Notes: generated from the sequence alone by a model not told the origin. A stretch of DNA of 31,621 nt from a bacterium (GCA_040752695.1 JBFMGO010000005.1:1-31621), one strand, 5' to 3'. Counted from the stretch's first letter, positions 1-30,937 are shown. A program made the numbers and translations.

Positions 1-16
1 ACAAGGGAGGTATAAC

Positions 17-520
17 TTGATCATGAATAATTTACCATCTCAACAGGCCGCTTTCACCTTAGTTGAAGTTTTGGTTATCGTCGCGATAATCGGAATTCTT
101 TCCGCAATTGCTGGACCAGATCTTTTAAACATGATGCCAGGAATCCGCCTGAACAACGCTGCTCAGCTCATTGTAAATGATCTCCAGTTTGCGCGAATGC
201 GATCGATTTCGACAACCAGGGAATATAGAATCAATTTTGACGCCTCTTCTGAAAGCTACCGGATTGAGGAAGGTGACCAATCAATCGGATCCACCTGGCC
301 GGGAACATTAATTGAGCAGGAGAGGAGACTTAATGACAGTTCCAATGTGTTTTATCAAAAAGGCATTGATCTGAATAGCGTAACACAAAATCCGGTTTTC
401 AACTCCAAAGGATTATGTTCAACCCCCTCAACGATTAAGATTCAAAATAACAGCGGAGGCAAAAAAAAGGTTGTTATTAATATGACTGGAGGGATTAAAA
501 TCTATGACGGATGGGATTAG
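17..520 (+). CDS. Type IV minor pilin / pseudopilin, FimT/FimU/GspH family
   Basis: Class III signal A|FTLVEVLVIVAIIGIL (Ala rather than Gly at -1, E5 present). FimT/GspH-type 'RLNNAAQLIVNDLQFARMRSI' helix and C-terminal 'FNSKG...INMTGGIKI'. SD GGGAGG lies 6 nt before TTG at 17; ATG at 23 is an alternative start. Confidence 0.88.
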   Translation: MIMNNLPSQQAAFTLVEVLVIVAIIGILSAIAGPDLLNMMPGIRLNNAAQLIVNDLQFARMRSISTTREYRINFDASSESYRIEEGDQSIGSTWPGTLIEQERRLNDSSNVFYQKGIDLNSVTQNPVFNSKGLCSTPSTIKIQNNSGGKKKVVINMTGGIKIYDGWD

Positions 521-935
521 AAAAAGCCGCCTGCACGTCCGCCAGTACTCAAAAAGATGTCTTTTGGCAGAAGAGGGATTTACCCTTGTAGAGCTCCTCG
601 TTTCACTGGCTATTCTCGCCCTTGCTCTTCGGGGAATTGGAAATATCATTGTAACCGCATCCCGAAGCAATGGCATGTCCCGTAAAATTACTTTAGCCTG
701 TAACCTCTGCCAGGCGAAGATTGAGGCTATCAAGGCACTGGGCTATAGTGCCATAGCCGACAGTCAGGAATGCGGTATTGATGAAAGGGGCGAATCTGGA
801 GGGGGCTTCGACCGTACCGTTACTGCGGTAACCGGCCCTGTGAGTGACACCAAATTGATTACCGTAACCGTCAGTTGGACCGATTATACCGGGCCCCGTC
901 AGGTTTCGGTACAGACCCTGTTTGCAGATTTGTAA
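504..935 (+). CDS. pilV: Type IV minor pilin, PilV-like
   Basis: G|FTLVELLVSLAILALAL prepilin motif, 'A..L.Q.KIE.IK' helix and 'F.RTV.V...K.ITVTVSW' C-terminus. Sits between the fimT-like and pilW-like genes. Confidence 0.8.
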   Translation: MTDGIRKSRLHVRQYSKRCLLAEEGFTLVELLVSLAILALALRGIGNIIVTASRSNGMSRKITLACNLCQAKIEAIKALGYSAIADSQECGIDERGESGGGFDRTVTAVTGPVSDTKLITVTVSWTDYTGPRQVSVQTLFADL

Positions 936-1016
936 TTTCCCTTTAACACGTTTTCCTGTGACCCGTTATTTTTCAGCCCCTTATCCCTTTTTATGATCGT
1001 TCTGCAAGGAGACGAT

Positions 1017-3485
1017 ATGCCTGAACCTTTTAAACTTTCCCTCTATCCAGACGCGAGCGGTTTCAGCTTTGTGGAGTTGATGGTGAGCATGGGCATTTTC
1101 CTCATTGTTCTTCTTGCAGCTTTTGAGGTTATCACTTCTCAGAAAGATACTTTTAAACAAGAGCAGGCGATGATCGAGACGTCCCAGAGTTCGAGGGCAT
1201 CCCTTGACATTCTGCTGAGAGAACTCCGTACTTCGGGCTATAAAGTACTCGAAGCCGACTTTCTCGGCTCCCTGTCCAGATGGATTTCCAGCGGATACCT
1301 GCCTACCAGCCCAAAAGATGTCGTTCTGTCTTACGGCACCTGCCCCATTTTTACGGAAGGTAATGGTTCGGAGCCGGATATGATCACCCTTTTTATGGCT
1401 GATATCAAAGAGAATACTCTTTTAGCTCACGTAGCCAGTGACTGCAATGTCATTATCCTTGACGCCAATGCTCCCGGTTTTTCCTGTAGCGGCAAATTCA
1501 GAACCGATGATATCATACGCATTGGCGATCATACTGAGTTTGCAAAAGTTATCGGTGTTTCTGATAACTCCCTGACTATCGATACCAACCCCTCATTACG
1601 GGGAAATCAGGGACTGACCTGCAGCTATCAGGCCGGAGTGCCCATAAGGGAAATCAATATCGTCACCTATACCGTGTTTAATGATGAAAATGATCCGACA
1701 AACCTATATCATACGGCAGGACATCCCGTTTTGAAGAGAAAACATAATGAGGCTGTCTATATGGATGTTGCTGAAGATGTGGAAGATCTTCAAATCATAC
1801 CAGCCACTTTTCCGAACTATAAGCTGCAGATCATTTCCCGGACCTCAACCAGGGGCAATTATACATCCGGTTCCCCGGACGGTTATAAACGGGTTGAATT
1901 GCTGACAGATTTTCGGTTACGTAACTTCATCGATAAACACTGCCTCCTGCCGGCAACTGTTGCAACTCCCTCATTGAGCGGTCTTGATGAGTCATATCCC
2001 TGCACTATCCATGTCAGTTGGGCTGCGGTTACAAAAGATTCACAGAACGAAAGCCTCTCAGCCGAATGCAGCATCAGTGAGTATGTCATTGCCTACGATA
2101 CCACACCGCAAACCCGCTCCCACTCTACATATACCAGTGATGGTACCAGTTGTGACATCGACATCAATGACATAAAAGATCCCAATCATCAAACATACTA
2201 TGTCAGTGTTGCCGCTGTCAATGCTGCCGGTTTAGGTGCTTTTTCTGCTGAAAGATCGATTACTGACACCCATCCCCCTTCTAGCGTCAGCAATCTGACG
2301 GCCACTGCAGATGGTCATTCGATCACCCTCAATTGGACCGCCGATCTGGAATGTGATGTGGTAGCTTTCCGTATTTATCGCAGTACTAGTTCCAGAGGGC
2401 CCTATACCTTGATCTTCGACGATCCGAACTTCATCGACCATAATACCGAGACTGAAGGTCTTGATTCCTATACCTACTGTGATACGAACCTGCCCTGCCA
2501 CACCTATTACTATCAGGTGAAGACCTTTGATGATAAATTCGAAAGCACCAGTTCTCCGCAATCTTCTTATTCCATAGTCGATAATGATCCTCCTGAAGTG
2601 CCGACTGATTTTTCCTATACGCCGTCAGCGAACAGCATGGTAGACTTCAGGTGGAACCTGTCACCCGATGATCCATACTTGAATCCGGAAGAGAATTCGG
2701 GAGATAACGATGTGAGGGCCTACCGCATCTTCGCCCTTGACGGAGTGGTTCCGATTCTCCTGAACACCTCTGTTATTCCGGCAGGGCAGAATACAGCGAG
2801 TCTCTACTCACTAGGATACCACAGCTTTGGCATTAAAGCGGTCGACATTTGCGGCAATACCAGCGATCTAGTCGCCCTGGCGGATGCCTGCCAGGACCCG
2901 CCGCAAGTCGTTTTCATCATACCTTCCTCTGGTGACACCCTGTCAGGAAGCTCGATTATCAATGGCACTGCATCTTCATCTCATCCACTCGACTGGGTCA
3001 AATTAAAAATCGGCGATGGACCATGGATTCAGCTCAATGATACGAGCAACTGGAGTTACGAATGGGATACCTCGTCTATAGCTGACGCGAACTATGCCAT
3101 TACCGTACAAGCCCACGATAGTGAAGACTGTCTGGGAAGTGCCTTCATCACTGTCATTGTTCAAAACTCAACAGGACAGGGCGAAAATGAAGCCCCTGAT
3201 CTGGATGTAACTCCACCTTCGATCAGTAATGTCGTGGTCACATCATCCGGTCGCGGTTGGGTGGACATCGTTATAACCGCTACCATTACTGACGATTCTG
3301 GAGTCTCATCCGTAACGTATACCTGTAAAAATAATGGGAATATGGTGAGAGTTGATGAGATGACCCATATTGGTGGTGACTCTTACCGGTGCACCTACGT
3401 GCGACATCAAAATGACACCTATTCCGTTACCATATCTGCTACTGACGGAGTTTCCAATACAGGGACCTATACTACCACTGACTGA
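1017..3485 (+). CDS. pilW: PilW-like minor pilin with a long C-terminal FN3 and Ig-like extension (~822 aa)
   Basis: G|FSFVELMVSMGIFLIVLL, PilW-like 'RASLDILLRELRTSGY' and 'VAEDVEDLQI...LRN' ending near 1930. FN3 motifs follow (IHVSW...YYVSVAAVNAAG; ITLNW...FRIYRS...YYYQVKTFD; FRW...YRIF...KAVDICGNTS), then an Ig domain (W.YEWDTSS..D..Y.ITVQA.D) and a DVTPPSI Ig domain. SD AAGGAG precedes ATG 1017; the ORF track starts at 993. Confidence 0.82.
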   Translation: MPEPFKLSLYPDASGFSFVELMVSMGIFLIVLLAAFEVITSQKDTFKQEQAMIETSQSSRASLDILLRELRTSGYKVLEADFLGSLSRWISSGYLPTSPKDVVLSYGTCPIFTEGNGSEPDMITLFMADIKENTLLAHVASDCNVIILDANAPGFSCSGKFRTDDIIRIGDHTEFAKVIGVSDNSLTIDTNPSLRGNQGLTCSYQAGVPIREINIVTYTVFNDENDPTNLYHTAGHPVLKRKHNEAVYMDVAEDVEDLQIIPATFPNYKLQIISRTSTRGNYTSGSPDGYKRVELLTDFRLRNFIDKHCLLPATVATPSLSGLDESYPCTIHVSWAAVTKDSQNESLSAECSISEYVIAYDTTPQTRSHSTYTSDGTSCDIDINDIKDPNHQTYYVSVAAVNAAGLGAFSAERSITDTHPPSSVSNLTATADGHSITLNWTADLECDVVAFRIYRSTSSRGPYTLIFDDPNFIDHNTETEGLDSYTYCDTNLPCHTYYYQVKTFDDKFESTSSPQSSYSIVDNDPPEVPTDFSYTPSANSMVDFRWNLSPDDPYLNPEENSGDNDVRAYRIFALDGVVPILLNTSVIPAGQNTASLYSLGYHSFGIKAVDICGNTSDLVALADACQDPPQVVFIIPSSGDTLSGSSIINGTASSSHPLDWVKLKIGDGPWIQLNDTSNWSYEWDTSSIADANYAITVQAHDSEDCLGSAFITVIVQNSTGQGENEAPDLDVTPPSISNVVVTSSGRGWVDIVITATITDDSGVSSVTYTCKNNGNMVRVDEMTHIGGDSYRCTYVRHQNDTYSVTISATDGVSNTGTYTTTD

Positions 3486-3557
3486 TGGAAGAAGGTAACG
3501 AGTAATTCAACGTGACCGAACGCTGAAAAAGCCTGACAAAAGGAGAGAGGATCCGGC

Positions 3558-4601
3558 ATGCCCCAACTACCCTTTCCCGCCGATAACAGGGGAATAGCCC
3601 TGGTGACTGTTATGGCCCTCATGGCTATTCTCTTTTTATTAGGGTCGGCTGTTTTAACCAATACAATCGTCGAATCGAAGATCAGCCAAAACCACAAGCA
3701 GAGTATACAGGCACTTTATGATTGCGAGGCCGGTATAGCTGAGGCCATTTCCCATATTAAAAACCGCACTGCTACCCTGGACCAGGACGGCGACCCTAAT
3801 TGGATTTTAGCTGCAAACAGTTCCCCTGCTTTCCATTACCGCTATTCTATCAGCTATGATACCGAAAGCCGCATCTATACAATTATATCTCAAGGAAAAG
3901 ACGCTACCCTGACAGCCAATCGCAGGATCATTGCTGAATTGATACGTCCCTTTTCTTCAGGCGATATAAACTCGCCGGTTTATTGCGGATCTGGCGACAA
4001 CAGAGGGCAGCCTAATAGAATCAATGGGGATTCATCCTGCCCGGTATGGGCCGATGACGGTGATCCGAACAATAACACCAGTGCACCCTGCATTTCTACT
4101 CCCAATCCACGTGTCAGCGATACAGATCCTCTTGATTTTGACCAGGATCAGCTCATTACCTCGAATCCGGACAAGATGATGTACGATGTTCCTCCTATTA
4201 ATTTACAAGCTATGGCAGATTATTACAGCACCGTTGCTGACTTAACCAGCATTCCGAATGGGAATGGGGATATTGGAGCCTATGATGACCTCAAGGTGGT
4301 GTACGTAAACGGTTCTGAAACTATTGCCGGAAACAGGAACGGCTATGGCATTTTGGTGGTTACCGGCGATCTGCACCTTTCAGGGCAGCTCCATTGGTAT
4401 GGTGTCGTTATAGTCCTGGGAAATATCAGACAAACGGGCGGTGGTAGTCATGGTATTCAGGCTACCGGAGCGGTTTTGACACCGAATAATTTTTCAATGC
4501 GGGGAAATCCCGATATTCAGTGGTGTGACGACATGGTCCGGAAGGTGATGCAGGACGCAGGTACCCCCCCCTTCAGCATCTTAAGCTGGATTGAAGATTA
4601 A
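3558..4601 (+). CDS. pilX: PilX-like minor pilin with C-terminal beta-solenoid-like extension
   Basis: G|IALVTVMALMAILFLLG lacking E5, which is typical of PilX. 'ALYDCEAGIAEA' PilX-N motif, 'GILVVTGDL...GVVIVLG' repeats and an 'LSWIED' end. SD AGGAGAGAGG. Confidence 0.82.
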   Translation: MPQLPFPADNRGIALVTVMALMAILFLLGSAVLTNTIVESKISQNHKQSIQALYDCEAGIAEAISHIKNRTATLDQDGDPNWILAANSSPAFHYRYSISYDTESRIYTIISQGKDATLTANRRIIAELIRPFSSGDINSPVYCGSGDNRGQPNRINGDSSCPVWADDGDPNNNTSAPCISTPNPRVSDTDPLDFDQDQLITSNPDKMMYDVPPINLQAMADYYSTVADLTSIPNGNGDIGAYDDLKVVYVNGSETIAGNRNGYGILVVTGDLHLSGQLHWYGVVIVLGNIRQTGGGSHGIQATGAVLTPNNFSMRGNPDIQWCDDMVRKVMQDAGTPPFSILSWIED

Positions 4602-4666: not shown

Positions 4667-7600
4667 TTACGGCACAGGTTTCTTTTCCGTAGTGGCTGGC
4701 ATCATTTCCGTGCCCCCCCCGGCGCCAGCCGGTTTCATATCTTGTCCGGGCTTCCAATATTTTTGATGCCACTCCGAGGGGACATGATAATTCTTATACC
4801 TGAGGATAGCGTCAAATCCATGGCAGTCAAGGCAAATGGAAAAGTCTGCGCCACTATTTCTCAGAAAGCTGTTGCGCGGATCGCCTTCGATATTTTTCCC
4901 AATAGCCGGATACTCTGGAAATTCGGGATCCCACTGGTGAGCATTGTGGCAGGTGATGCAGGTTACAAAACCTACCGCCGATTTTTTGGCCTGCTTATCG
5001 TAGAGTGGAAAATAGGTCTTGTAATCCGTATTTCCCATCGTGCGGAATTGGGATATTTTCCCTGTATAGACAAAGGAACTGGGATGAAGACCGATAAATA
5101 CGCTCTTACTTTCAGCGCACTTACCCTTTTCATGACAGGACAGGCAGGTAGCCAGGGCGAGGTCGTTCTCCGGTGGAAGTTGTTTTGCCCAGAGCAGGGT
5201 TTTGTAGATACTATTATGAACAAGATGGCAGGCAGAACAGATACCTGATTGCTCTACGGTGTATCCCTGTATATTGACCTCCTTGTTTGCGAACAGGCTC
5301 AAGTCATGTTCACTCTTTATGACATGCTTTTTATCTTTGTGGCAGTCCGTGCACAGATTTTCCTTTTCCTTTTCATCCAGTCGTAAAAAGCTGCTGTGAA
5401 TATCCCCTTCCTGATTCCTCACGACAACCGTTTTCCCTTTACCGAATGGCCGCTCTTTGACGGCAGGTTCACTCTTTTGCAGCCGCTCGTCAGGAGCCCA
5501 CTGATGAGGATTATGGCAGGTGTTACAGGTTAAAAACCCTTTGGCAGAATTTTCAACCTTGCCACTCAGCGTGTAAAGCGGCAGTGTGGTGGCAATTCCT
5601 TTTTCCGCAAGGACCAGGTCTGTGGGATGAGAAAAATTCGCGATAACTTTTTTCTCCCCAACCCTGCCCTGACTGTGGCAGCTTGCGCATTCGCGGGTGG
5701 TGAGACTGAGGCTTCCGGCATGGGAGGGAAATTCCCTGGCCCACATATCGCCTGATGGAGCATTGTGAATTAAATGACAGGCAGAGCAGACCCCCGCTTC
5801 ACTGACCGTCTGTTTCTGAATATTCTTTTCGGTGTCAGCTACGAGGCCCATGTCATGATCGGTACCGACCACGCGGCATTCCTTCTGGTGACATTCCTCA
5901 CACAACTCGGGCCGGGGCAGCATGGACAGCCGAAGGAAACTGTCTTTTGCCGTTCCTTCAATGTTTTCTCCCGTCCCTTGCACCAGTTCACCCGGTGCCC
6001 ACTGGTGGAGGTTATGGCAGGAAGCACAGGCAACCCTGCCTTCCGGCTGCTTTGTGCCATCGGGTGCATAGAGAGGTAGTCTGATTTGTCCATCCGCCAG
6101 TTTAATACCCTTATCCATGGGATGCGTATGAGTGGAGATAACCTTCTTTTCTCCACAACACTTTTCCTTATGACAGGAAGTGCACAGTCGGTTGGCCAGA
6201 TCCCCTTGCAGCCCATCAACGGATTTTGCAAACATCAGAATCGATGTACCGTTATGGGCAAGATGGCAGGTGCCGCACAGGCCGGATTTACTGGGCAGGT
6301 CACCGGGATAATTCTTTTCCCTGGGAGCGATAAACCGCAAGTCGTGATCGGTTCTGGCTATATACTGCTGCTTCCTGTGGCAGTCAAGGCAGAGAGTGGA
6401 GTTGATATCGTTGACGATTCGGAGGAAACTATCGTTTCCATCTCCTTCCAGGTTCTTCCCTATCCCCATCCTTTTGAGATCCGGTCTCCACTGGTGAACA
6501 TTGTGGCAGGTAGCGCAGGTGACCAGTTTGCCCAGTTCGGAGGCAACTCCCATCTTGTCAAAGAGAGGAAGTGTGGTTTTATCTTCAGCCAGACGAATGT
6601 CCACTCCAGCCGGATGCGTGTAGGTGCCGACGAGTTTCTTCTCTCCGCAGGCTTTTTCCCTGTGGCAGCTTTCACAATATGCGGTTACGGGATCCTGGAC
6701 CTTTGGCAGCACCCTGGCCCACAGTCTGTTACCTTGAGCCTGATGCACTGCATGGCAAGCGCTGCAGGGGCCGGATTCAACACATTTTTGCTCCAGTGCA
6801 TTGAGATCTTCTGCGGCAGTGATGCGCAAGTCGTGATCTGTCTTTAAAACAGTTTTTTGGTCCTCATGGCAGGTTACACAAAAATCGGAATTTTCCGTAT
6901 TCGCCATTCTCAAAAAGCTGTTCGATTGTCCGCCTTCCACCATTTGTCCGGGACCCTGCTCTTTTTTCCCTGGGTCCCACTGATGGGGATTATGGCAGGT
7001 AGTACACAGGATTTTCCCCTGAGTACCCTGGGCGCAAGGGACCCCCAGTACGGTGTAGGTGGGAAATTCGACTTTTCCCTTCACCTTGGCAATATCCCGG
7101 TTAACAGGGTGGCTGTAGGTACCGGTCAGCTTCTTTTTGCCGCAGGAGTTCTCATTATGGCAGCTCTCACACATCTTCGATCCTGCATCGCCGTTCAAAC
7201 CTGACAAGGGCCGAGACCAGAGCCGGTACTTTTCTGCATTGTGAGGCTGGTGACAGGCACCGCAAATACCAGTCTGAGAGCCTACCTTGGTTGAAAAATC
7301 AAGCTCCGTTGGTGCTGACAGAGTAAGATCATGCTCGGTTTTCACCACCAGATTTTCCTGCTGATGGCATTCGATGCACAGCGGGGATTTTCCCCCCTTT
7401 ACGAGGATCGAAGTCTCTTTTTGTGCCCCGTGCGGAGAGTGGCAGGTCAGGCACAGAATTTCATCCTTCGCTCCGGTAATGAGCTTTGTACCTTCACTCC
7501 ACTTCTGAGGCAGATTGGCTTTTGGAACCACATCCACCGGATGGGTGCCCATTCCAATCCCTTTCCCTTTCATACTGGGATTGGGTGTATGGCAAGACTC

Positions 7601-8332
7601 GCATAACTGAGCATTCCATTCTCCATCGGTTTTATTGGGAATGACCAAAAGGTTTTTATCGATACTGCCATGAACCGTATGGCAGGACTCGCAAATGACC
7701 GTATCCTTTTCCACACCAGATCTGCCGTAATTATCCAGGATTCTGACAGGGATCGGTAATGAGTTGACACCGATGGGGTGATTGCCCGCACGTGGCCCGC
7801 CATCTTTCCCGATGTGGCATTTGAGGCAAATTTCCGAATTGCGGTTTGGAAACCGAAGGTAAATCGATTGCTGGAAGCGCAACTCATCAGCAACACCGTG
7901 GGCTGTGTGGCATGTGCCGCATACAATCTGCTTTTTCTCTCCCAGAGGCATCTCAGGCGGAACGGTCACTTTTTCCGAAGGCACGATATTCACCCGGTGC
8001 CCCCGCTTGGCCCAGAACCGCTCCCGCGAATCGACCAGGATGCCATTGTGGCAGCTATAGCACATCATCTCATCAGCGGCATCTCGTTCTTTCTGATATT
8101 CGACCAGGTCAGTACCACGGCCTTCATAGTAGAATTGGTCCAGCCACCGGAAATGACAAATCGCGCACTCCTTGGCAGAGTTGGCAACCATCTGTGCATT
8201 TACTTTCGGAGTCAAGGCCAGAAGAAAGGATAAAAGCCAGACAACGGCACCATAAAAACCTGAAGGAGGTAATCCCTGGGGACACCTCAGGGAAGAGGGA
8301 AAAACAGCCTGTTTTAAACGATCATGAGACAT
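4667..8332 (-). CDS. Secreted 28-heme cytochrome c: 8 N-terminal hemes plus five tandem OmcE-like tetraheme modules
   Basis: 28 CXXCH counted by hand. Sec-type signal (VVWLLSFLLALTPKVNA|Q). Five repeats of HD[LM]...CxxCHxxH...CxSCH...HP...CxxCHNxHQW...SFLR...CxxCH. Confidence 0.93.
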   Translation of the reverse strand: MSHDRLKQAVFPSSLRCPQGLPPSGFYGAVVWLLSFLLALTPKVNAQMVANSAKECAICHFRWLDQFYYEGRGTDLVEYQKERDAADEMMCYSCHNGILVDSRERFWAKRGHRVNIVPSEKVTVPPEMPLGEKKQIVCGTCHTAHGVADELRFQQSIYLRFPNRNSEICLKCHIGKDGGPRAGNHPIGVNSLPIPVRILDNYGRSGVEKDTVICESCHTVHGSIDKNLLVIPNKTDGEWNAQLCESCHTPNPSMKGKGIGMGTHPVDVVPKANLPQKWSEGTKLITGAKDEILCLTCHSPHGAQKETSILVKGGKSPLCIECHQQENLVVKTEHDLTLSAPTELDFSTKVGSQTGICGACHQPHNAEKYRLWSRPLSGLNGDAGSKMCESCHNENSCGKKKLTGTYSHPVNRDIAKVKGKVEFPTYTVLGVPCAQGTQGKILCTTCHNPHQWDPGKKEQGPGQMVEGGQSNSFLRMANTENSDFCVTCHEDQKTVLKTDHDLRITAAEDLNALEQKCVESGPCSACHAVHQAQGNRLWARVLPKVQDPVTAYCESCHREKACGEKKLVGTYTHPAGVDIRLAEDKTTLPLFDKMGVASELGKLVTCATCHNVHQWRPDLKRMGIGKNLEGDGNDSFLRIVNDINSTLCLDCHRKQQYIARTDHDLRFIAPREKNYPGDLPSKSGLCGTCHLAHNGTSILMFAKSVDGLQGDLANRLCTSCHKEKCCGEKKVISTHTHPMDKGIKLADGQIRLPLYAPDGTKQPEGRVACASCHNLHQWAPGELVQGTGENIEGTAKDSFLRLSMLPRPELCEECHQKECRVVGTDHDMGLVADTEKNIQKQTVSEAGVCSACHLIHNAPSGDMWAREFPSHAGSLSLTTRECASCHSQGRVGEKKVIANFSHPTDLVLAEKGIATTLPLYTLSGKVENSAKGFLTCNTCHNPHQWAPDERLQKSEPAVKERPFGKGKTVVVRNQEGDIHSSFLRLDEKEKENLCTDCHKDKKHVIKSEHDLSLFANKEVNIQGYTVEQSGICSACHLVHNSIYKTLLWAKQLPPENDLALATCLSCHEKGKCAESKSVFIGLHPSSFVYTGKISQFRTMGNTDYKTYFPLYDKQAKKSAVGFVTCITCHNAHQWDPEFPEYPAIGKNIEGDPRNSFLRNSGADFSICLDCHGFDAILRYKNYHVPSEWHQKYWKPGQDMKPAGAGGGTEMMPATTEKKPVP
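4820..7345 (-). repeat. Five diverged intragenic tandem repeats (~490-550 nt each) encoding tetraheme modules
   Basis: Units begin at KTEHDL (~7345), KTDHDL (~6850), RTDHDL (~6357), GTDHDM (~5867) and KSEHDL (~5318). Each unit carries four CXXCH, HQW and SFLR. Confidence 0.9.
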
Positions 8333-8344
8333 GGATAAATTTCT

Positions 8345-9490
8345 TTATTTCCCGATTGAATAGACACTTATCGTACTGGTATACATTTGAACAACATACA
8401 GCCGGTTTTGCTGATCGATACATAAATCCGCCGGAACCTTGAAGCGAATCTTCTGATTCGACATATCCCCGACAACGCCTAAAAAGTTGCCCTGCTGATC
8501 AAAGACTTGAATTAACCCGATCTTGTCGTAGTTTTCTCCGACAAAGATTCTCTCCTGCTGATCCATACAGATTGACTGCGGCCTGAAGAATTGACCTCTT
8601 TCGATACCCCACTCACCGATGCTGCGGATGTACTCACCCTGGGGGGAGAGAACCTGCACTCTGGTATTGATTACGTCCGTTACGTACATATTGCCAGACT
8701 TATCCAGACATATGGCATAGGGGTAGCGGAAATCTCCATTTTCATAGCCAACCCCCCCGACCTCTTTGAGCAGTTCGAACTTCTTATCGTAGATTAAAAG
8801 CCTGTGGTTATCATTATCGACGGCGACAAGCTGCTGATTCACCTCATCGAAAGCCATATCCGTAGGGTCGGACAACGACCTGTACTTATCTGGAGGGACC
8901 GGGATTTCCGTTACCGGACTTGCGCGATCATCGAATACCTGAATCCGGTGATTTTTTGAATCGGCAACGTAGATGCGATCTTTGGAATCAATCATTAATC
9001 CAAGTGGAGACTTGAATTCTCCACGATCGCTTCCTTTTTTCCCGAACTGAGCCAGATATTTCCCATCATAGGAAAAGAGCACAAGCCGGCCGTTGACTCC
9101 ATCCAGAACCCAGATCCTTTTCTGGGAATCAACAGCCACTGCACTGGGTTGATCAAGAGGCGGTATTACAGCCTCTTTTTTAATATCAAAAAGATGCTTT
9201 ACCTGGATAATCTGAAGAGGAGCCGCCGTCACAGGATTGACCACTGCTGCTGGTTTGTCGGCTGGTGCCGGTGTTCCGCTTGGAGATGCAGATATTCCAT
9301 GAATGGGGGCGACCGGTTGTTCCGCTTTTCCACTTACGGAGACCGGCTGTTCCGGTTTTCCACTCACCGAAGCCGACATTCCCCTCTCAGACCAGAGAAA
9401 AACAAGAGCCGGGCAGAGCAGAATCAAGAAAAGCCACAGCCAAAGGATAGAATCCGTGCCCTTAAAATGGCTTGTATGGTTATTACTCAT
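8345..9490 (-). CDS. NHL-repeat six-bladed beta-propeller protein, exported or N-terminally anchored
   Basis: Repeated NHL motifs (P.AVAVDS...IWVLD..NGR; GEFKSP.G...DS.DRIYVADSKNHRIQVF; GDFRYPY...YVTD..N.RVQV). N-terminal hydrophobic segment followed by a Pro/Ala/Ser linker. Confidence 0.92.
   Translation of the reverse strand: MSNNHTSHFKGTDSILWLWLFLILLCPALVFLWSERGMSASVSGKPEQPVSVSGKAEQPVAPIHGISASPSGTPAPADKPAAVVNPVTAAPLQIIQVKHLFDIKKEAVIPPLDQPSAVAVDSQKRIWVLDGVNGRLVLFSYDGKYLAQFGKKGSDRGEFKSPLGLMIDSKDRIYVADSKNHRIQVFDDRASPVTEIPVPPDKYRSLSDPTDMAFDEVNQQLVAVDNDNHRLLIYDKKFELLKEVGGVGYENGDFRYPYAICLDKSGNMYVTDVINTRVQVLSPQGEYIRSIGEWGIERGQFFRPQSICMDQQERIFVGENYDKIGLIQVFDQQGNFLGVVGDMSNQKIRFKVPADLCIDQQNRLYVVQMYTSTISVYSIGK
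9311..9370 (-). repeat. 30-nt imperfect tandem duplication in the NHL protein linker (SVSGKPEQPV / SVSGKAEQPV)
   Basis: gaccggttgttccgcttttccacttacgga is followed directly by gaccggctgttccggttttccactcaccga. Confidence 0.85.
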
Positions 9491-9512
9491 TCTCCTCTCC
9501 CGGCATCAGCGA

Positions 9513-10433
9513 TCATTCTTCTCCACCCTGGTCCATTACCGGAAGGGGAATCTTGCCATCTTTCAGATTTTCCTTCCCTTCGATGATGTTTTCCGGTCGA
9601 AACATGGTAGGCAATTTCAGAGACTTATATTTGGAAACCATACCAGCCACTTCCGTTCCGGTAAACTCGTCGCACAGGTGCTGAGGATAACCGAGTGCCT
9701 TGAAATCCAGGAAGGGATTCCTTCTGCGGTGACACTCGGTGCAGGTGACAGGCTCCTGAGAAAGATGCTTATGCGCCTCAGCCTTGGCCTGTGACTGCTG
9801 ATCGTAGGTATATTGTGCCCAAAGCCCCAGATACTGGCGTGCATATTCTTCGGTGATGGGTTGGTCCAGCCTTTTATGCTTCCCGATCTTGTCCAGGATG
9901 CAGGGCACAATTTTGGCCCCATAATTTCCCGCATACACCCCATCAGGAACACGGTCCTTGATCTCGGGGATTTGTTCGCCGGTGTAATTATCGTACCAGA
10001 CAAAAGTAATCTTTGGAGAGCGCATATGACAGGTTTCACAGGCGCAAAAATAGGTATGCATATTATAAAGTGATCTGACTTCCTTGTTTTTACTATGCGG
10101 ATAGTTTCCGTGGCAGATTAAACAAAGCGTGGGAACCCGCTTTTTCACATCCAGACTCGTGTCGATATTATGAAAATGTTCCATTTGTGAATAGGTCTTC
10201 GTTTTTAAAATATTTTTAAAAACGTCCTTATCTGCAGGCCTTACATCGAGCGCATCATCCTGGGAAGATGATTTCCCTGTAGTTACTTTCTCGAACTCAA
10301 CGGCCGGAGGTCCATGGTGAACTCCCTTTTTCGGGAAGAAGAATACCTTAATCATCATCAGCAGGCTAATTACCAGGAGTACTGCTGCTATGCTGCTGAT
10401 TGCCTTTACAATTGGTCCGCGGGATTTCAACAT
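9513..10433 (-). CDS. Membrane-anchored triheme cytochrome c, probable accessory subunit of the Cbc-type complex
   Basis: N-terminal TM helix (AISSIAAVLLVISLLMMIKVFFF). Motifs CLICH, CETCH and CTECH. Extra His in HFH, YPH and NMH. Lies directly after the cytochrome b gene. Confidence 0.8.
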   Translation of the reverse strand: MLKSRGPIVKAISSIAAVLLVISLLMMIKVFFFPKKGVHHGPPAVEFEKVTTGKSSSQDDALDVRPADKDVFKNILKTKTYSQMEHFHNIDTSLDVKKRVPTLCLICHGNYPHSKNKEVRSLYNMHTYFCACETCHMRSPKITFVWYDNYTGEQIPEIKDRVPDGVYAGNYGAKIVPCILDKIGKHKRLDQPITEEYARQYLGLWAQYTYDQQSQAKAEAHKHLSQEPVTCTECHRRRNPFLDFKALGYPQHLCDEFTGTEVAGMVSKYKSLKLPTMFRPENIIEGKENLKDGKIPLPVMDQGGEE

Positions 10434-10436
10434 CGC

Positions 10437-11237
10437 TTATTCCTCCTCAGTTTCCAGCGTATTGTTATGATGACCATGGTGTTCATGTTGCCCACCCCAT
10501 GAGGCTGAGTTCGAGGAGGCACCCTTCGTTTTCGCTTTGGCCATTTCTCTTTCCTTTACCACTCGCTCCCACTGAAGGGGATGCTCGTGTTTTAAATGCT
10601 CCATACTTACCAGCCCATCGATCCATGAGGTATCTTGCGGGAATTTCCCGGGTTTCCAGTGTACGCCGTAAAAGTGCCAGATCGAAATGGTAATACTGGC
10701 CAGCGTAGCCTCGCACAGGTGGACGGTGCCGCACAGATCGACCATGAACCTTGGAAAAAACTGGGCAAAGGTCATTACCACCCCGGTCACACAGATAACT
10801 GTCGTACCGATGAGTCCGAAGATATACTCCATTTTTTCACGATAATCGAACCGATCGAATTTAGGCTTGAAATCGGATACACCCAGCATGTAAAGAATAT
10901 TCTGCTTCATCTGGACTGCATCCGTAAGATTGGGAATCATATCCAGCAGCATCTGCCTTCCTGGCTTGGTAATTGCTCCATAAGCAAGGTGCCATATGGA
11001 GCCGAAAATTAAAAGGGTGGCCAGGATTAGGTGTGCAATGCGTCGATAATAATAAATCTGGCCTGTATACCTACCGAACATCACCGTTACCCAGTCGGTT
11101 GGTATTAAAGACATCATTCCTGTAGCCACCAGCAAAACAAAGCAGATCCAGACAATGTTATGCTGCCACACCTCTACCCGTGACAGGCGAGGAAAATATT
11201 CCTGGTCTTCAGCTCTCCTTCCCCATTTCTTTGCCAT
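10437..11237 (-). CDS. cbcB: Inner-membrane cytochrome b (FdnI/HyaC-like, CbcB-type quinone oxidoreductase subunit)
   Basis: Four hydrophobic helices with His ligands (WQH, IAH, IWH, TVH, IWHFY). Also 'FDRFDYREKMEY' and 'G.VS.EHLKHEHPLQW' motifs. Starts 1 nt after the CbcA-like gene ends. Confidence 0.82.
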   Translation of the reverse strand: MAKKWGRRAEDQEYFPRLSRVEVWQHNIVWICFVLLVATGMMSLIPTDWVTVMFGRYTGQIYYYRRIAHLILATLLIFGSIWHLAYGAITKPGRQMLLDMIPNLTDAVQMKQNILYMLGVSDFKPKFDRFDYREKMEYIFGLIGTTVICVTGVVMTFAQFFPRFMVDLCGTVHLCEATLASITISIWHFYGVHWKPGKFPQDTSWIDGLVSMEHLKHEHPLQWERVVKEREMAKAKTKGASSNSASWGGQHEHHGHHNNTLETEEE

Positions 11238-11238
11238 A

Positions 11239-12390
11239 TTAATGTCTCCCTTCCCTTCTTTCTTTCAAGGTTATTCTCAAGTCAAGCAATTGGTGCAAGA
11301 ACATAAAACCTCCAACCAAAACGATCATCAACTTATAGAAACTCTTAATGGCCCAGATAATGGTCAGCTGCAATTTCGTCATGCTCTTATCATCGATTTC
11401 GGCTCTCAGCTTCGTCTTTTCCTCCGGTGTTAAATCTTCACTCTTTTCCCTGAGTTCCTTTTCCAGCAAGGCAGCTTTTACGCCCGTACCATGAACCGCC
11501 CCTGAGGCGAAATACTTGTTGGCTCCCTCGTGGCAGCCGGGCTGACCGCAGACCTTGGTACGATTGTCCTGAAAGAGAAGGGATTCCGGATCATCAGCAG
11601 CCTTGATTAAATGGGCTGATAACCCTAATTGCCCCGGTCCATGGCAACTGAGGCAATCCGCGCCATTTACAGCTTCATACTTTACGTTTCGCCAGTGAAA
11701 GGTCTGTTTGAAGTTATCCGTACTTTCAAGGCCAAAGTTCTGCATCAGTTTTTTATCCGCATGGCAGTTATTACAAAGATCCACAATCTCCTTCTTGTTC
11801 CATCGCGGGGCTGTCCGGGAAGCGAAATGTTTCAAGAACCGGTCAGCCCAGGGACTCTTTTCATGACAGGCTATGCAGCGGGCCAATGACTCTGACTCAC
11901 AGCCGGGCTTTTCCGCCAGGATTCCTTTCAAAGGGGAGTAGAGCGGGTTGGTATGGCAGTATTTACATCTTGGCTGTCCATCCTCAAAGACGAATAAAGG
12001 AGACTTGCCATGAATACTTTGCTTAAATTCATCGACTGTAATTTTATGTGAAAAATCTTTGCCTGTGGAAGGGTCCTTGACATGACACTTGGTTTCACAA
12101 TTCACTTTTTTGGCAGGTTTGTGAGGAACTTCTTTGACATCCTGATGACAATGACTGCATAATACACCCGTGTGAACAGTATTCCTATAGAGACCTTCGC
12201 TTACGTAAAATATCTTTTTGGCTCCTGATTCTTTGTCAAAGCATCCAAGACCTGAATACCGGTGACAAAGCATACAGTTTTCCTGGTCTGCAGCCCGTGC
12301 AGATCTGGGGCTCCAGGCAACGCAAACGAAAATCATAAAACATAGGACTATAAGCAGGAAAGTGAATCGAGGAACTCTTTTATCTGCCAT
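11239..12390 (-). CDS. cbcA: CbcA-type multiheme cytochrome c with C-terminal membrane anchor (6 CXXCH plus CX3CH and CX4CH)
   Basis: Signal peptide ending ARA|. Motifs CMLCH, CSHCH, CETKCH, CKYCH, CIACH, CNNCH, CLSCH and CGQPGCH. C-terminal helix YKLMIVLVGGFMFLHQLLD contains a His. Paired with the cytochrome b gene. Confidence 0.8.
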   Translation of the reverse strand: MADKRVPRFTFLLIVLCFMIFVCVAWSPRSARAADQENCMLCHRYSGLGCFDKESGAKKIFYVSEGLYRNTVHTGVLCSHCHQDVKEVPHKPAKKVNCETKCHVKDPSTGKDFSHKITVDEFKQSIHGKSPLFVFEDGQPRCKYCHTNPLYSPLKGILAEKPGCESESLARCIACHEKSPWADRFLKHFASRTAPRWNKKEIVDLCNNCHADKKLMQNFGLESTDNFKQTFHWRNVKYEAVNGADCLSCHGPGQLGLSAHLIKAADDPESLLFQDNRTKVCGQPGCHEGANKYFASGAVHGTGVKAALLEKELREKSEDLTPEEKTKLRAEIDDKSMTKLQLTIIWAIKSFYKLMIVLVGGFMFLHQLLDLRITLKERREGRH

Positions 12391-17082: not shown

Positions 17083-18369
17083 CTATTTCTTCTTGTGACA
17101 CTGTTCACACAGTGCCTGTGAGCCATCCCATCGCAATGCATGCATAAACTTGGTCCCCATAGGATCGTGACACGTCTGGCATGTAATTGGACTCTTCCGG
17201 TCCCTGGGGTCAATAGCCTTTTCTCCTACAGGGTGGCAGGCATTCTTTTGCCTGGCATGGCATTTTGTACATAATGTGAGAATATCTGTTTTATAGAAAT
17301 TGGGCAGTGAAGAGGAATGGGGATCGTGGCAACTGGTGCAGTTTCCCTTCACAACTTCCGGATGCCGGTAATCCCCTGCGTTCTGCTTTAACCGCGCTGC
17401 TATTCGGGGATGGCAGCTTTCGCAGAGGGCTCTGACATCTTTTCGAGTTAAGTTCTTTCGCTCAGAGGCATGGGGATTATGACAATAGGTGCATTGTGTA
17501 TCCCCGGAAGCCATATGAGTTCTTGATGCGCGTTGGAACTTCTCTTTTTCTTTTTGGTGGCAAGTATAACATAATTTTGCTCCATGAGCAACTAATGTAG
17601 ATTTTTTTTCGTTCTGATGACAACTTTTACACTTTTGCTCCTCATACGGAGTGTGGGTAAAATCATAGATCAGCCCTTTCCTGTTGGACGCGTGCGGGCT
17701 ATGACACAGGGTACAGTCGCTGCCTCGGACATCAAATCCCTGATGAAATTCTGTCAGGTTTTTTTGACCGTGACAGCCAAGGCAAAGAGTACGCAGTGGC
17801 TCAATCAGCAGGAAATCCTCTTTCGAAGCATGAGATACATGACAGGTTTGACACTTTCCCTCCTTAACCGGCTCATGCACCGTGCTCGCCGTATACTTTT
17901 CTTTCGAATGACACTGAAAGCAAAGATTCTGCCCCTTCGCTTTCAACTGGGATCGGTAAGGGGATACATGTGCCTCATGGCAGCCAAGACACCCCCTCCC
18001 CTCCTCCCGAAGGGGCCCGTGCACTTTCAGTCCCTGCCATTTTTCTTTTTGTTCACGGTGACAGCGGTAGCAAAGCCCGGCTCCTTCATCGATCAGAAGA
18101 TGATTGAACCGGGCTGTGTGCGGATTATGGCAGCCTGCGCAATTCTCCTGCCTGACGACCCGATGAACATACCCCGAGGCGCATTTTGTTTTCAGGTCCG
18201 GATGGCATTGGAAGCAATCGACACCTGCGCGCGATTCGGCTGATGGAAAAAGTACGAGAAGCAAAAAGAGCGGAAGAACCACTGAGAAAGAAGCGCTCTT
18301 CCCCCTGCACTTTCCCCTCCACTTTTCCAAGGAGCGTCGATTGTTCCTGCACTGATCATTCTGGCACAT
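17083..18369 (-). CDS. Periplasmic 16-heme cytochrome c with paired-CXXCH repeats (~428 aa)
   Basis: 16 CXXCH arranged as H.P...CxxCHxxH.S...LL...LCxxCH units. Start reassigned to ATG 18369, which has AAGGA upstream, a 14-nt overlap with the preceding gene, and a signal peptide ending SRA|. Confidence 0.9.
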   Translation of the reverse strand: MCQNDQCRNNRRSLEKWRGKCRGKSASFSVVLPLFLLLVLFPSAESRAGVDCFQCHPDLKTKCASGYVHRVVRQENCAGCHNPHTARFNHLLIDEGAGLCYRCHREQKEKWQGLKVHGPLREEGRGCLGCHEAHVSPYRSQLKAKGQNLCFQCHSKEKYTASTVHEPVKEGKCQTCHVSHASKEDFLLIEPLRTLCLGCHGQKNLTEFHQGFDVRGSDCTLCHSPHASNRKGLIYDFTHTPYEEQKCKSCHQNEKKSTLVAHGAKLCYTCHQKEKEKFQRASRTHMASGDTQCTYCHNPHASERKNLTRKDVRALCESCHPRIAARLKQNAGDYRHPEVVKGNCTSCHDPHSSSLPNFYKTDILTLCTKCHARQKNACHPVGEKAIDPRDRKSPITCQTCHDPMGTKFMHALRWDGSQALCEQCHKKK

Positions 18370-22042: not shown

Positions 22043-22612
22043 TTATAGGGTAAAATCTTCAAATATCTTTTTTAACCTGGCGCTCTCGGTTTGCAGTTTT
22101 CTCACCATATGTTCCGAGCAGGCTCCAGGCAGGTCTTTTTGAATCATGGCATCAAGATAGTGGGATGACTCTCTGGCTGCCAAAAGCCGCTCTCGCAAGC
22201 TTGCGCCCATCTGGTTGATCTCTCTGGCCAGATCCTGTAATTCATCGTTCGATCTCAGGCGAAAATCCTCGTGCAGGTTTCCCAGAGCGATGCTCTGGAT
22301 TCTGCGCTCCAGGCGGTAGAGAGGGCCCGCCAGTTTTTGCGGATAAAACAGGGCAACCGTTAAGGCCAGAAAGCCGCCAATGCCTATGGCCAGTAGCGTC
22401 CACGGGATGAGAACCTGTCTCATGTTATGCAGTTGAACATGAAACTGCTTGTAAGTCGTATCGATTTGACGATTACTGTAATGGTAAAAGATTCCTCCGC
22501 TGATCAAAGAGGAGATGACCACAATGAGCAGAATCCATCCTAAAATCCGCAGTTGAAACTGCCTTTTTATACCGAGGTTAAACCATTTTCTCTTTTGGTG
22601 GGAATGCTCCAT
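22043..22612 (-). CDS. Small two-TM membrane protein with a HAMP domain and no output domain (~189 aa)
   Basis: Two TM helices, then HAMP 'AGPLYRLERRIQSIALGNL...LRSNDELQDLAREINQM' and a short coiled coil. Start reassigned to ATG 22612 (SD GAGGAGAGG). Confidence 0.82.
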   Translation of the reverse strand: MEHSHQKRKWFNLGIKRQFQLRILGWILLIVVISSLISGGIFYHYSNRQIDTTYKQFHVQLHNMRQVLIPWTLLAIGIGGFLALTVALFYPQKLAGPLYRLERRIQSIALGNLHEDFRLRSNDELQDLAREINQMGASLRERLLAARESSHYLDAMIQKDLPGACSEHMVRKLQTESARLKKIFEDFTL

Positions 22613-22634
22613 GTCCCTCTCCTCACGCTCACTC

Positions 22635-24164: not shown

Positions 24165-24336
24165 CCGGCATCCGTTTCCATTGTCTCCCCTCCAGTCGAA
24201 TCCTCTTTCACTGTCTTCTCTGCCCTCGAATTTTCCGCGATGACCGCTGACGGATTTCCCGTTCATCATCTTCGATAATAACTGACTGTTCGATAGCAAC
24301 TGACTGATGGTCTTCGTTGATGAATAGATCAATTTT

Positions 24337-30843: not shown

Positions 30844-30937
30844 ATACTTACACCACCTGACCGAAACCATGAACAACCATAAGACACGATCCTTAAGCAA
30901 ATCTGCTCTTTTTTTATAACGATTATGCTCGATTCTC

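Follow-up and report, generated by a model that had tools for sequence, protein, structure and literature searches.

A 28-haem cytochrome best explained as a secreted covalent concatemer of OmcE-type modules, and a candidate fixed-length electron wire

The window analysed here is a stretch of 31,621 nucleotides of bacterial DNA (GCA_040752695.1 JBFMGO010000005.1:1-31621), which carries on its minus strand, at positions 4667..8332, a reading frame that stays open over 1221 amino acids. A motif scan of the translation returned exactly 28 CxxCH haem-binding motifs and none of the variants CX3CH, CX4CH or CxxCK, giving an amino-acid-to-haem ratio of 1221/28 = 43.6. The first 46 residues (8195..8332, minus strand) read as a Sec-type signal peptide, with the hydrophobic core GAVVWLLSFLLAL followed by VNA and then Q; the cleavage site after VNA was placed by eye from the translation. 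Neither a lipobox nor a recognisable surface-anchoring domain was found in the translation or by Pfam, no enzyme family of Pfam or NCBIfam matched the protein above its cut-off, and the Pfam Cytochrome_C7 match (E=7e-26) is one stretch, residues 646-722, that straddles a junction between two of the modules described below. Judged from the translation, the product is best explained as a secreted 28-haem c-type cytochrome.

Haems 9-28 lie in five canonical repeats arranged in tandem, each of 163-183 residues and all on the minus strand: R1 (residues 329-494, haems 9-12; 6851..7348), R2 (495-657, haems 13-16; 6362..6850), R3 (658-820, haems 17-20; 5873..6361), R4 (821-1003, haems 21-24; 5324..5872), which carries an insertion of ~20 residues ahead of its EGD..SFLR segment, and the terminal R5 (1004-~1174, haems 25-28; 4811..5323). 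Searched against the whole 6.05 Mb genome, a module profile matched them at E=6.4e-55, 4e-58, 7.3e-53, 2.3e-51 and 6e-50, respectively. Pairwise identity among the five is 36-43%, and 35 columns are invariant across all copies, including the four CxxCH motifs, an F-L-R motif and four histidines outside the haem motifs, namely H6 (T[DE]HD), H36 (CxxCHxxH), H80 (HP) and H122 (CHNxHQW). Tandem repetition of this kind is far beyond chance. Across a wider set of modules, drawn from 78 related loci and the window, H6, C29xxCH33, H36, C59xxCH63, H79, C112xxCH116, H119 and C154xxCH158, plus F-L, are the only residues invariant in 149/149.

The eight haems ahead of these repeats fall into two further segments, also on the minus strand. 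Module N2 (residues 177-328, haems 5-8; 7349..7804) is shortened, and the module profile matches its residues ~209-306 (7415-7708) at E=3e-14. Module N1 (residues 47-176, haems 1-4; 7805..8194) is degenerate; the profile matches residues ~49-176 (7805-8188, profile positions 22-161) at E=2.5e-5, and its alignment to the profile, spanning positions 26-161, is without the N-terminal T-x-H-D histidine and the CxxCHxxH histidine. Behind R5, a C-terminal cap with the pattern G-x-D-A-x-x-R-Y-K-x-x-H is followed by a low-complexity tail (residues 1175-1221; 4670..4810, minus strand).

The nearest structurally characterised relative of the module is OmcE, whose homologues, according to the available text of PMC13712944, share a signature of four CxxCH motifs and four other haem-ligand histidines. 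A profile built from all 149 modules and searched against all PDB sequences matched OmcE of G. sulfurreducens (7tfs_A) at E=3.9e-11 (46.4 bits) and the D. soudanensis homologue 9yuq_N at 1.1e-9; the next match, at E=1.7e-5, covered a local two-haem stretch only. Narrower queries recovered the relationship less clearly: a profile from just the five repeats of the window gave a marginal OmcE match (E=0.01), and phmmer with the whole protein reached 9yuq_N at E=0.031, with 7tfs absent from its 8 matches at E<=1. The HMMER alignment to 7tfs_A runs in the order TKHDL, CVFCHTPHNA, LWNR, CMSCH, DHPV, LPLF, CGSCHKVH, FLR and LCLGCH. Modelled alone with AF2, R2 reached a pLDDT of 94.6 and a pTM of 0.87, and when the model was compared with 48,161 chains by VIA-align, four had Z>=2, with 7tfs_A on top at Z 8.9 (125 residues aligned at an rmsd of 2.6 A and 31% identity, pairing 5-159 of the model with 30-231 of the chain) and OmcS (6ef8) as runner-up at Z 4.2. 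Foldseek likewise placed 7tfs first (E=8.1e-3, probability 0.99; next match E=2.7). Archaeal ECN structures were absent among the structural matches of the R2 model, an absence that is uninformative. In the AF2 model of the full mature chain (pLDDT 80.6, pTM 0.66), residues 453-606, the extent of one module, cover the whole OmcE chain at Z 7.3, and Foldseek alone gave a non-significant E=0.85 for 7tfs. The 10-residue blocks that span the junctions were modelled at pLDDT 87-94, the cap region at 50-74 and the first 56 mature residues below 50.

By profile and predicted structure, then, each repeat is homologous to the OmcE nanowire subunit and is predicted to have the same fold. On the profile matches, haems 1-8 belong to two copies of the same OmcE-type module that have become shorter and have diverged, so that the chain counts seven modules, and its apparent architecture is best explained as seven OmcE-type tetrahaem modules, the first two shortened and the other five canonical, joined covalently into a concatemer. 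The original prediction, made from the sequence alone, had described 28 haems with five tetrahaem repeats, given the order of the OmcE motifs, and proposed that the repeats resemble OmcE and that a single chain joins them head to tail; the motif count, the alignment to 7tfs_A, the profile and fold matches, the single open frame and the well-modelled junctions bear this out. Its suggestion that the 8-haem N-terminal part could serve as an adaptor gives way to the two degenerate modules.

The histidines at the junctions and at the chain ends bear on whether such a chain is complete in itself. OmcE subunits are joined partly by a histidine given to a haem of the neighbouring subunit (the available descriptions report this ligation between subunits and a rise of 34 A), and the junction histidine of T-[DE]-H-D would do that job here, with the haem chain then probably unbroken through all 28 haems. 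Counted from the preceding CxxCH, the junction histidines lie at +12 (His185, in the NHP of N2, 12 residues past the last CxxCH of N1), +11, +11, +11, +11 and +11 (His1009), after which the cap histidine, His1183 (nt 4784-4786), lies 12 residues past the last haem-motif histidine. Junction and cap histidines are 100% conserved in the 101 aligned relatives, and 66 of the 68 complete reading frames from the related loci have a cap histidine at +10..+14. Both solved OmcE chains (7tfs_A, 9yuq_N) end 2 residues beyond their last CxxCH, so an invariant histidine at +12, where OmcE simply ends, suggests a capped chain rather than a polymerising protomer. With a first module that has no donor-type histidine, the chain seems complete at either end. 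The conserved candidate sixth ligands number 27 for 28 haems, N1 being without the CxxCHxxH histidine, and no conserved Met was found in the alignment of relatives; one end may thus be open to a ligand from another protein or another copy. As the N-terminal region is poorly modelled, the missing N1 ligand may also simply be non-conserved.

The cytochrome is the last of five genes on the minus strand, separated by 1, 3, 22 and 12 nt. The first encodes a hexahaem periplasmic cytochrome c (11239..12390; 383 aa, 6 CxxCH; homologue in 60/78 loci). It is followed by a putative dihaem cytochrome b (10437..11237; 266 aa; homologue in 62/78 loci) that resembles FdnI and Ni-hydrogenase cytochrome b, both matches falling under the family cut-offs (Pfam Ni_hydr_CYTB E=5e-6, 26.9 bits against 30.1; NCBIfam formate dehydrogenase gamma E=3.3e-7); it has one HX13H and one HX14H pair within hydrophobic segments, and a sequence search found no relative in the PDB. 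The third gene encodes a trihaem cytochrome c (9513..10433; 306 aa, 3 CxxCH; homologue in 66/78 loci) with a hydrophobic N-terminus as membrane anchor, and the fourth an NHL-repeat beta-propeller (8345..9490; 381 aa; Pfam NHL E=3.9e-30) whose stop codon lies 12 nt ahead of the start codon of the 28-haem protein. A homologue of the NHL gene stands directly upstream in 54 of the 71 loci with enough upstream DNA, and the exact order hexahaem cytochrome, cytochrome b, trihaem cytochrome, NHL propeller recurs in 31 of the 59 with at least 4.5 kb upstream, a count affected by crude calling of reading frames and by cytochrome matches that can cross-match. The five genes form a widely conserved, tightly packed cassette, which in many loci sits among housekeeping genes; in several, an NHL gene and an 11-haem cytochrome of ~660 aa lie downstream. 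None of 56 downstream reading frames matched a porin family, 17 of them having no family at all. Further multihaem cytochromes of the window, with 16 and 25 haems and of the 'paired CXXCH' kind, have ~29-31 amino acids per haem; a large MtrB-like barrel is encoded as well, and the beta-propellers of the window number two, one of which has a lipobox.

Relatives of the 28-haem protein occur in over 600 genome loci, from many uncultured and a few cultured bacteria, and many hosts bear the name of a genus that oxidises sulfur or iron, such as Thiobacillus, Sideroxydans, Sulfuricella and Thiohalomonas. Databases label the family only as "cytochrome c3 family", and a literature search found no paper describing it. 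Repeat number was surveyed in the 68 complete reading frames: 42 have 24 haems and 14 have 28, together 56/68. The module missing from the 24-haem relatives is R2, since the invariant columns vanish over that stretch of the alignment. In a quick tree, one supported clade unites the R5 modules from 11 of the 13 proteins, and modules from different species sort by their place in the chain: the tree has 17 label changes, where shuffled labels average 40.2 and 0 of 200 shuffles came as low, which indicates that the architecture is old and stable.

We lean, on balance, towards reading the protein as a capped covalent wire of seven OmcE-type modules, fixed in length at ~24 nm, that spans the periplasm as a conduit tied to the quinone-linked cassette. 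The length would be set by the gene and, should each unit add the same rise as in OmcE, come to about 7 x 34 A = 24 nm, and electrons would be carried across the periplasm between the quinone-linked module in the cytoplasmic membrane and partners at or in the outer membrane; candidates for these in the window are the 16-haem and 25-haem cytochromes nearby and the MtrB-like barrel. Haem ligation, continuity of the haem chain and absence of polymerisation are in this account drawn from the sequence, and the periplasmic location and the quinone coupling are likewise presumptive. The original prediction of a single-chain nanowire thus stands as regards the covalent concatemer; an extracellular location is not supported, the conserved partners being a cytochrome b, anchored or periplasmic cytochromes and an NHL propeller, with no conserved porin found, and its proposal of further polymerisation is disfavoured by the cap histidine and the form of N1. 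A broader proposal, which we put forward tentatively and hold at somewhat less than even, is a length-encoded periplasmic cable: several phyla would have fused six or seven OmcE units, sealed the ends and wired them to a dedicated quinone-linked membrane module, with the N1 end as docking or reaction site and the module number as a ruler. If so, a count of 24 or 28 haems, for some 20-24 nm, would be matched like a ruler to the width of the envelope, and one solution to haem packing would occur both as a non-covalent polymer outside the cell and as a covalent cable inside it.

The same covalent wire might instead be exported: the nearby MtrB-like barrel or a type II system would secrete or thread it, and it would be a single-chain nanowire at the cell surface or outside the cell, reaching ~20-25 nm off the outer membrane. 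We consider this rather unlikely. In its favour, the nearest structural relatives are extracellular filaments, and OmcE gene clusters, in the available text of PMC13712944, contain besides OmcE a pair of multihaem cytochromes, a pair of beta-propeller lipoproteins and a large beta-barrel, every one of which gene kinds occurs within 22 kb in the window; in addition, 5 of 16 distant relatives with several modules carry fused beta-helix and Ig-like domains. On the other side, a homologue of the barrel, which in one relative immediately follows the wire gene, is present in just 1/78 loci, the YVTN propeller in 4/78, and the pseudopilin genes that adjoin the wire gene on the opposite strand have homologues in 0-1/78. 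The downstream reading frames without a porin family, the housekeeping surroundings, the lack of a lipobox or anchoring domain, and the membrane-bound cytochrome b and trihaem cytochrome as conserved partners also speak against export.

A second alternative, which we judge improbable, holds that the protein is mainly a periplasmic electron store, or a wire whose N-terminal end carries a haem for catalysis or substrate binding. In some multihaem enzymes the active-site haem has no ligand partner of the His or Met kind, and N1 has one haem for which neither is conserved; many hosts, moreover, bear the names of sulfur- or iron-oxidising genera. As for storage, 28 haems of the bis-His type could hold many electrons, and other periplasmic cytochromes with many haems have been proposed to act as capacitors (PMC10734462, available text). 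The modules are, however, of the type described as insulated wire in the available text of PMC13712944, the predicted junctions are ordered, and no enzyme family scored above its cut-off. Least probable by our estimate, and very unlikely, is that the 28-haem chain is a large protomer polymerising head to tail into long filaments: OmcE-type units do polymerise through histidine donation, and the C-terminal histidine beyond the modules' set could in principle be donated in trans to the N-terminal-module haem of another copy that has no conserved sixth ligand, but its +12 position matches the in-chain spacing of +11/+12 and fits a cap in cis, N1 is without the donor-type histidine, the narrow length classes would have no obvious reason if polymerisation set the length, and no conserved secretion conduit was found in the 78 loci and 56 downstream reading frames.

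The preferred reading, a capped periplasmic wire, has partial counterparts in several known systems. CbcBA and CbcL of Geobacter combine a quinone-linked cytochrome b with multihaem c modules, and the first three cassette genes, likened to them by gene content, similarly pair a small FdnI-like cytochrome b, below family cut-offs as noted, with multihaem c. The uet cluster of Ca. Tenderia and the occ cluster of Ca. Dechloromonas occultata contain, in their available descriptions, multihaem cytochromes, NHL propellers and a peptidyl-prolyl isomerase, and the NHL gene and 11-haem cytochrome that follow the wire in several loci recall them; the proteins named there are undeca-, tetra- and trihaem ones and a porin, with no mention of a 24-28-haem protein of tandem modules. 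The NCBIfam model of the MtrA/DmsE decahaem family (TIGR03508) scored 70.5 bits against a cut-off of 192.2.

The PCC3 cytochromes of iron oxidisers (He et al. 2017; Hoover et al. 2023) are described, in the available text of PMC5566968 and PMC10734462, as periplasmic and extracellular, repeat-built proteins with very many haems (21-27 in the periplasmic ones), whose proposed length would suffice to cross the periplasm. They share with the wire the very many haems, the repeats and some genera, e.g. Sideroxydans. Set against descriptions rather than by sequence comparison, the wire stands apart from them: its ratio of 43.6 lies outside their 22-39 (median 26), haem number in their periplasmic members rises in threes (21, 24, 27) and that of the wire in fours, and their genes, as far as described, neighbour a porin and a ~300-aa five-helix membrane protein, no porin family having been found in the 56 reading frames downstream of the wire. 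The window's own 16- and 25-haem cytochromes look more PCC3-like.

The GSU1996-type periplasmic dodecahaem 'nanowire' of Geobacter, as partly described in 10.1101/2022.05.06.490989, joins four c7-type trihaem domains in one chain, and is likewise a single chain of tandem small multihaem modules, to which conduction or storage of electrons in the periplasm is attributed. Its module is the trihaem c7 domain, in contrast to the OmcE-type tetrahaem module here, and the corresponding NCBIfam model, TIGR04257 (nanowire_3heme), gave no match at E<=0.01. OmcE itself (7TFS, 9YUQ) shares with each module four CxxCH motifs and four further conserved histidines in the same order, a fold of mostly coil with short helices that matches nearly the whole OmcE chain, and beta-propeller genes nearby. 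OmcE is known as extracellular filaments, whereas the wire is known from sequence and predicted structure alone; OmcE belongs to a porin cluster, the wire to partners that are a cytochrome b, trihaem and hexahaem cytochromes and an NHL propeller. Where OmcE consists of separate subunits of ~200 aa with long loops, a donor-type histidine at the N-terminus and an end just after the last CxxCH, the chain described here fuses seven shorter units (~163 aa) that dispense with those loops, begins with a module that has no such donor, and carries its conserved cap histidine beyond the last haem motif.

The 28-haem cytochrome is encoded by a single open frame of 1221 aa (window 4667..8332, reverse strand) that contains 28 CxxCH motifs and zero variant haem motifs, with totals of 61 His and 65 Cys. 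Its N-terminus, judged by eye from the translation, reads as a Sec signal peptide, in which a hydrophobic core precedes the sequence VNA and a cleavage site before Q (aa 46/47). Starting at aa 329, five linker-free repeats of 163-183 aa (R1-R5) follow one another head to tail, with 36-43% identity between pairs and 35 invariant columns across all five, among them the four CxxCH motifs and four other His. Given these shared haem motifs and His, the original prediction of a 28-haem chain with five tandem tetrahaem repeats is therefore correct. When a profile of the module was compared with the whole 6.05 Mb assembly, the five repeats matched at E=4e-58 to 6e-50, and the same protein was also matched at aa ~209-306 (E=3e-14) and aa ~49-176 (E=2.5e-5), which correspond to two degenerate N-terminal modules, N2 and N1. 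The profile alignments pair all four haem motifs of N1 and of N2 with those of the module, and several 28-haem relatives are tiled by seven full modules. Judged by these alignments, the haems are arranged as seven sets of four rather than as eight followed by five sets of four, and the eight-haem N-terminal part, earlier proposed as a separate adaptor, resolves into two module copies. Other very long frames in the window organism's genome match the OmcE-type module partly and more weakly (E=2e-17 to 1e-3), on contigs C4 (~80-90 kb), C50 (~4-14 kb), C83 (~15-17 kb) and C5 (~38-42 kb, a 2747-aa frame); this genome is predicted to encode further giant multihaem cytochromes. A promoter and terminator scan gave no signal above shuffles.

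The relationship of the modules to OmcE, the filament subunit of G. sulfurreducens (7TFS), was evaluated by sequence and structure comparison. In a phmmer search of PDB sequences with the whole protein, NrfB ranked first (E=0.0011), 9yuq_N, the OmcE homologue of D. soudanensis, was found at E=0.031, and 7tfs was absent among the 8 matches at E<=1; a profile of the five window repeats alone reached 7tfs_A only at E=0.01. These matches were weak, and a deeper profile was therefore needed. A set of 280 full modules from 78 related loci (276 with four CxxCH) was thinned at 65% identity to 146, of which the first 144 were aligned with the five window repeats to yield a 149-row profile. This profile matched 7tfs_A at E=3.9e-11 and 9yuq_N, from an entry of 16 chains consistent with the published OmcE bundle of D. 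soudanensis, at E=1.1e-9, followed by NrfA (E=1.7e-5) over a local two-haem stretch. The alignment is colinear with OmcE residues 26-232, pairing each haem motif and each extra His. An AlphaFold2 model of R2 (aa 495-657), built on the module alignment without templates, reached a pLDDT of 94.6; 7TFS was released in 2022, later than the AlphaFold2 training cut-off. Among 48,161 representative chains, only four gave Z>=2 against this model, led by 7tfs_A (Z 8.9, rmsd 2.6 A over 125 residues, chain 30-231) with OmcS second at Z 4.2; the archaeal ECN chains (8E5F, 8E5G) and OmcZ were not among the four, an uninformative absence. Foldseek likewise returned 7tfs for R2 at E=8.1e-3 and probability 0.99, the runner-up lying at E=2.7. 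In the mature whole-chain model (pLDDT 80.6, pTM 0.66), residues 453-606, comprising one module, superpose on one OmcE chain at Z 7.3, and Foldseek with this model ranked 7tfs first but not significantly (E=0.85). Thus, at the level of sequence and structure search tools, the profile, AlphaFold2, Z-score and Foldseek matches establish that the modules are homologous to the OmcE subunit and share its fold, which bears out the likeness originally proposed.

In the OmcE filament, the interfacial haem is described as being ligated by one His of the adjacent subunit (PMC9473688, PMC13712944). The 28-haem protein carries a His 11 residues past the last CxxCH of each module (12 after N1), in contexts that read, in order, NHP, T[DE]HD four times and SEHD. 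Each of the 101/101 aligned relatives has these junction His and the remaining module His. After the last haem motif, the chain reads G-F-D-A-I-L-R-Y-K-N-Y-H, placing His1183 at +12; this cap His is kept in the same 101/101 relatives and lies at +10..+14 in 66/68 complete homologous ORFs. The 7tfs_A and 9yuq_N chains terminate two residues past their last CxxCH, and in the alignment N1 is without a His matching the N-terminal T-K-H-D-L of OmcE. By analogy with the filament, a concatemer descended from an OmcE-like protein should have a free donor His at one terminus and an unsatisfied haem at the other. At the ends of the 28-haem protein, the free donor His is missing and the last haem has a tethered His at junction spacing, from which we therefore infer a chain closed at both ends; such closure argues against further OmcE-style polymerization. 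The cap region has a pLDDT of only 50-74 in the whole-chain model. Across the family, there are 27 conserved candidate sixth ligands for 28 haems. A conserved W replaces the CxxCHxxH His in N1 (CAICHFRW; window 7805-8194, reverse strand), and no conserved Met was found as a sixth ligand in the family alignment. The one N1 haem without a conserved His or Met could be open, or ligated by a partner, at the N-terminal end of the protein.

Near-length relatives of the protein number more than 1328, the module is present in 949 clusters at 50% identity, and a relative is encoded in 603/660 scanned stretches of species-representative genomes. The closest relatives come from MAGs at 66-72% identity, some recorded as Pseudomonadota. 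According to genome records, gammaproteobacterial hosts include Thiobacillus, Sideroxydans, Sulfuricella, Sulfurimicrobium, Sedimenticola, Thiohalomonas and the cultured isolate Noviherbaspirillum denitrificans TSA40, while Nitrospirota, Desulfobulbaceae, Schekmanbacteria and Desantisbacteria are other host groups. Full modules range from 1 to 8 per protein and haems reach 49 among 257 proteins compared; in 68 complete locus ORFs, the haem number is 24 in 42 and 28 in 14. A quick maximum-likelihood tree, built with 65 modules taken from 13 five-module proteins, groups modules by position (17 label changes, compared with a mean of 40.2 after shuffling and 0/200 shuffles as low), and one clade unites 11/13 terminal modules with an SH-aLRT of 98. 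Because modules group by position across proteins, the duplications are read as old and the layout as stable. In 5/16 scanned distant multi-module relatives (P0121, P0122, P0148, P0173, P0199), the chain also contains fused right-handed beta-helix, NosD-like domains, and a NosD-like beta-helix protein is encoded as its own gene directly after the cytochrome in four loci (L011, L025, L035, L064). The family is genuine, widespread and as yet without a name, and its architecture follows a clear logic; its members appear in databases as 'cytochrome c3 family protein' or 'hypothetical'.

The cytochrome gene is the last of a five-gene cassette (window 12390..4667) with intergenic gaps of 1, 3, 22 and 12 nt, encoding, in order, a hexahaem cytochrome, a 266-aa membrane protein, an N-terminally anchored trihaem cytochrome, an NHL propeller and the 28-haem protein. 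Family searches matched the 266-aa protein to Ni-hydrogenase and FdnI-type cytochrome b below threshold, and two His pairs lie within its hydrophobic segments; PDB sequence searches with this putative cytochrome b and the hexahaem protein returned nothing useful. Homologues of these neighbours occur in related loci at frequencies of 60/78 (hexahaem), 62/78 (cytochrome b), 66/78 (trihaem) and 70/78 (NHL). The exact order is retained in 31/59 loci with enough upstream DNA, and the NHL gene lies directly upstream of the cytochrome in 54/71. Downstream genes differ between loci, comprising housekeeping, ResB-type cytochrome-maturation and NosD-like beta-helix genes; the 56 downstream ORFs of related loci gave zero matches to a porin family, and 17 belonged to no family. 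The genes that stay with the cytochrome gene across loci point to a putative quinone-linked membrane module rather than to an outer-membrane conduit. Six Betaproteobacteria-type loci (L022, L029, L037, L040, L053, L062) carry an NHL gene, a ~660-aa 11-haem cytochrome and a ResB-like gene ~3-6 kb downstream, a run reminiscent of the undecahaem clusters described as uet and occ.

Farther along, the window encodes cytochromes with 14, 8, 16 and 25 haems, two lipoproteins, one a YVTN propeller and the other a PPIase, and a barrel of 546 aa; the Atlas model of the barrel is similar to MtrB/PioB barrels (TM 0.68). Only in its closest relatives is the 28-haem gene found together with these additional genes (barrel in 1/78 loci, YVTN propeller in 4/78). 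The 16- and 25-haem 'paired CXXCH' cytochromes and the barrel (window 17083-20506 and 25509-27149, reverse strand) together resemble a distinct porin-cytochrome conduit, which may be PCC3-like. The 25-haem protein carries a lipobox and has ~29 aa per haem; the 16-haem ORF as called shares 200 nt with the 25-haem ORF and therefore probably begins further downstream than called. Flanking the barrel gene (window 23580-25489 and 27289-30900, reverse strand) are genes for a 1203-aa protein bearing fn3, invasin-D3 and Big_1 domains and for three small lipoproteins, which match LpoB, GNA1162 or CsgG-like families and have an LPFEN motif in common; these genes may form a surface-structure or adhesion module. 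A 227-aa HAMP-only protein (window 22043-22726, reverse strand) overlaps the called start of a 5-haem cytochrome ORF (22635-23480, reverse strand), and similar proteins lie near relatives in L003, L012, L019 and L053. Four genes at window 2-4601 (forward strand), one encoding an 830-aa protein with Ig-like domains, carry pilin-type N-terminal methylation motifs or a PilX_N domain and converge from the opposite strand on the 3' end of the adjoining cytochrome gene; as a secretion link they were rejected, the pairing recurring in 0-1/78 loci.

The rise of OmcE is reported as 34 A per tetrahaem unit (PMC12954529). If this rise applies, seven units would span ~24 nm and six ~20 nm. Such lengths are of the order of the Gram-negative periplasm width. 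Because the conserved partners form a putative membrane module and the length is of periplasmic order, we lean towards a periplasm-spanning conduit of fixed length, which would connect the cytoplasmic-membrane module to outer-membrane partners; in the window organism, the 16-haem and 25-haem cytochromes and the barrel are plausible candidates. A similar role was suggested earlier for PCC3 and further periplasmic cytochromes with many haems (PMC5566968, PMC10734462). The main rival, which we consider possible though rather doubtful, is export of the protein as a single-chain surface wire: every component type described for OmcE filament clusters (PMC13712944) is present in the window, and the barrel gene directly follows the cytochrome gene in locus L008. 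Location and function of the 28-haem protein are predictions from sequence and models, and a storage or catalytic role appears improbable. Least probable is the originally suggested protomer that polymerizes further, which the cap His at +12 and the missing N1 donor argue against.

The cytochrome nanowires known so far are non-covalent polymers, and there is debate over their assembly, termination and physiological role. A widespread natural single-chain wire would provide a monodisperse, expressible model of the OmcE type, with fixed length, defined ends and a defined partner set, encoded at over 600 loci of species-representative genomes, among them that of cultured Noviherbaspirillum denitrificans. 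Possible uses include conduction measurement, end-capping tests and the study of periplasmic electron crossing in sulfur- and iron-oxidizing and other bacteria, and a large family labelled just 'cytochrome c3 family protein' would gain a name and a testable role.

Regarding known systems, identity with the PCC3 periplasmic cytochrome was set aside on haem ratio and gene context, as taken from PCC3 descriptions, and the Slit_1321-1324 set was rejected as a counterpart, being dihaem and unrelated. No published account of tandem or fused OmcE modules was found in a literature search covering main texts. The D. soudanensis paper of 2026 describes OmcE homologues that are single units, spread over five phyla, as well as five-haem variants of about the same length, and the words fused, tandem, concatenated and duplicated do not occur in its text (PMC13712944). 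Single-chain 'nanowire-like' cytochromes have been reported in GSU1996 (10.1101/2022.05.06.490989) and the long Desulfuromonadia cytochromes (PMC11492766); these resemble the 28-haem protein in being single chains, but are built from modules other than the OmcE type.
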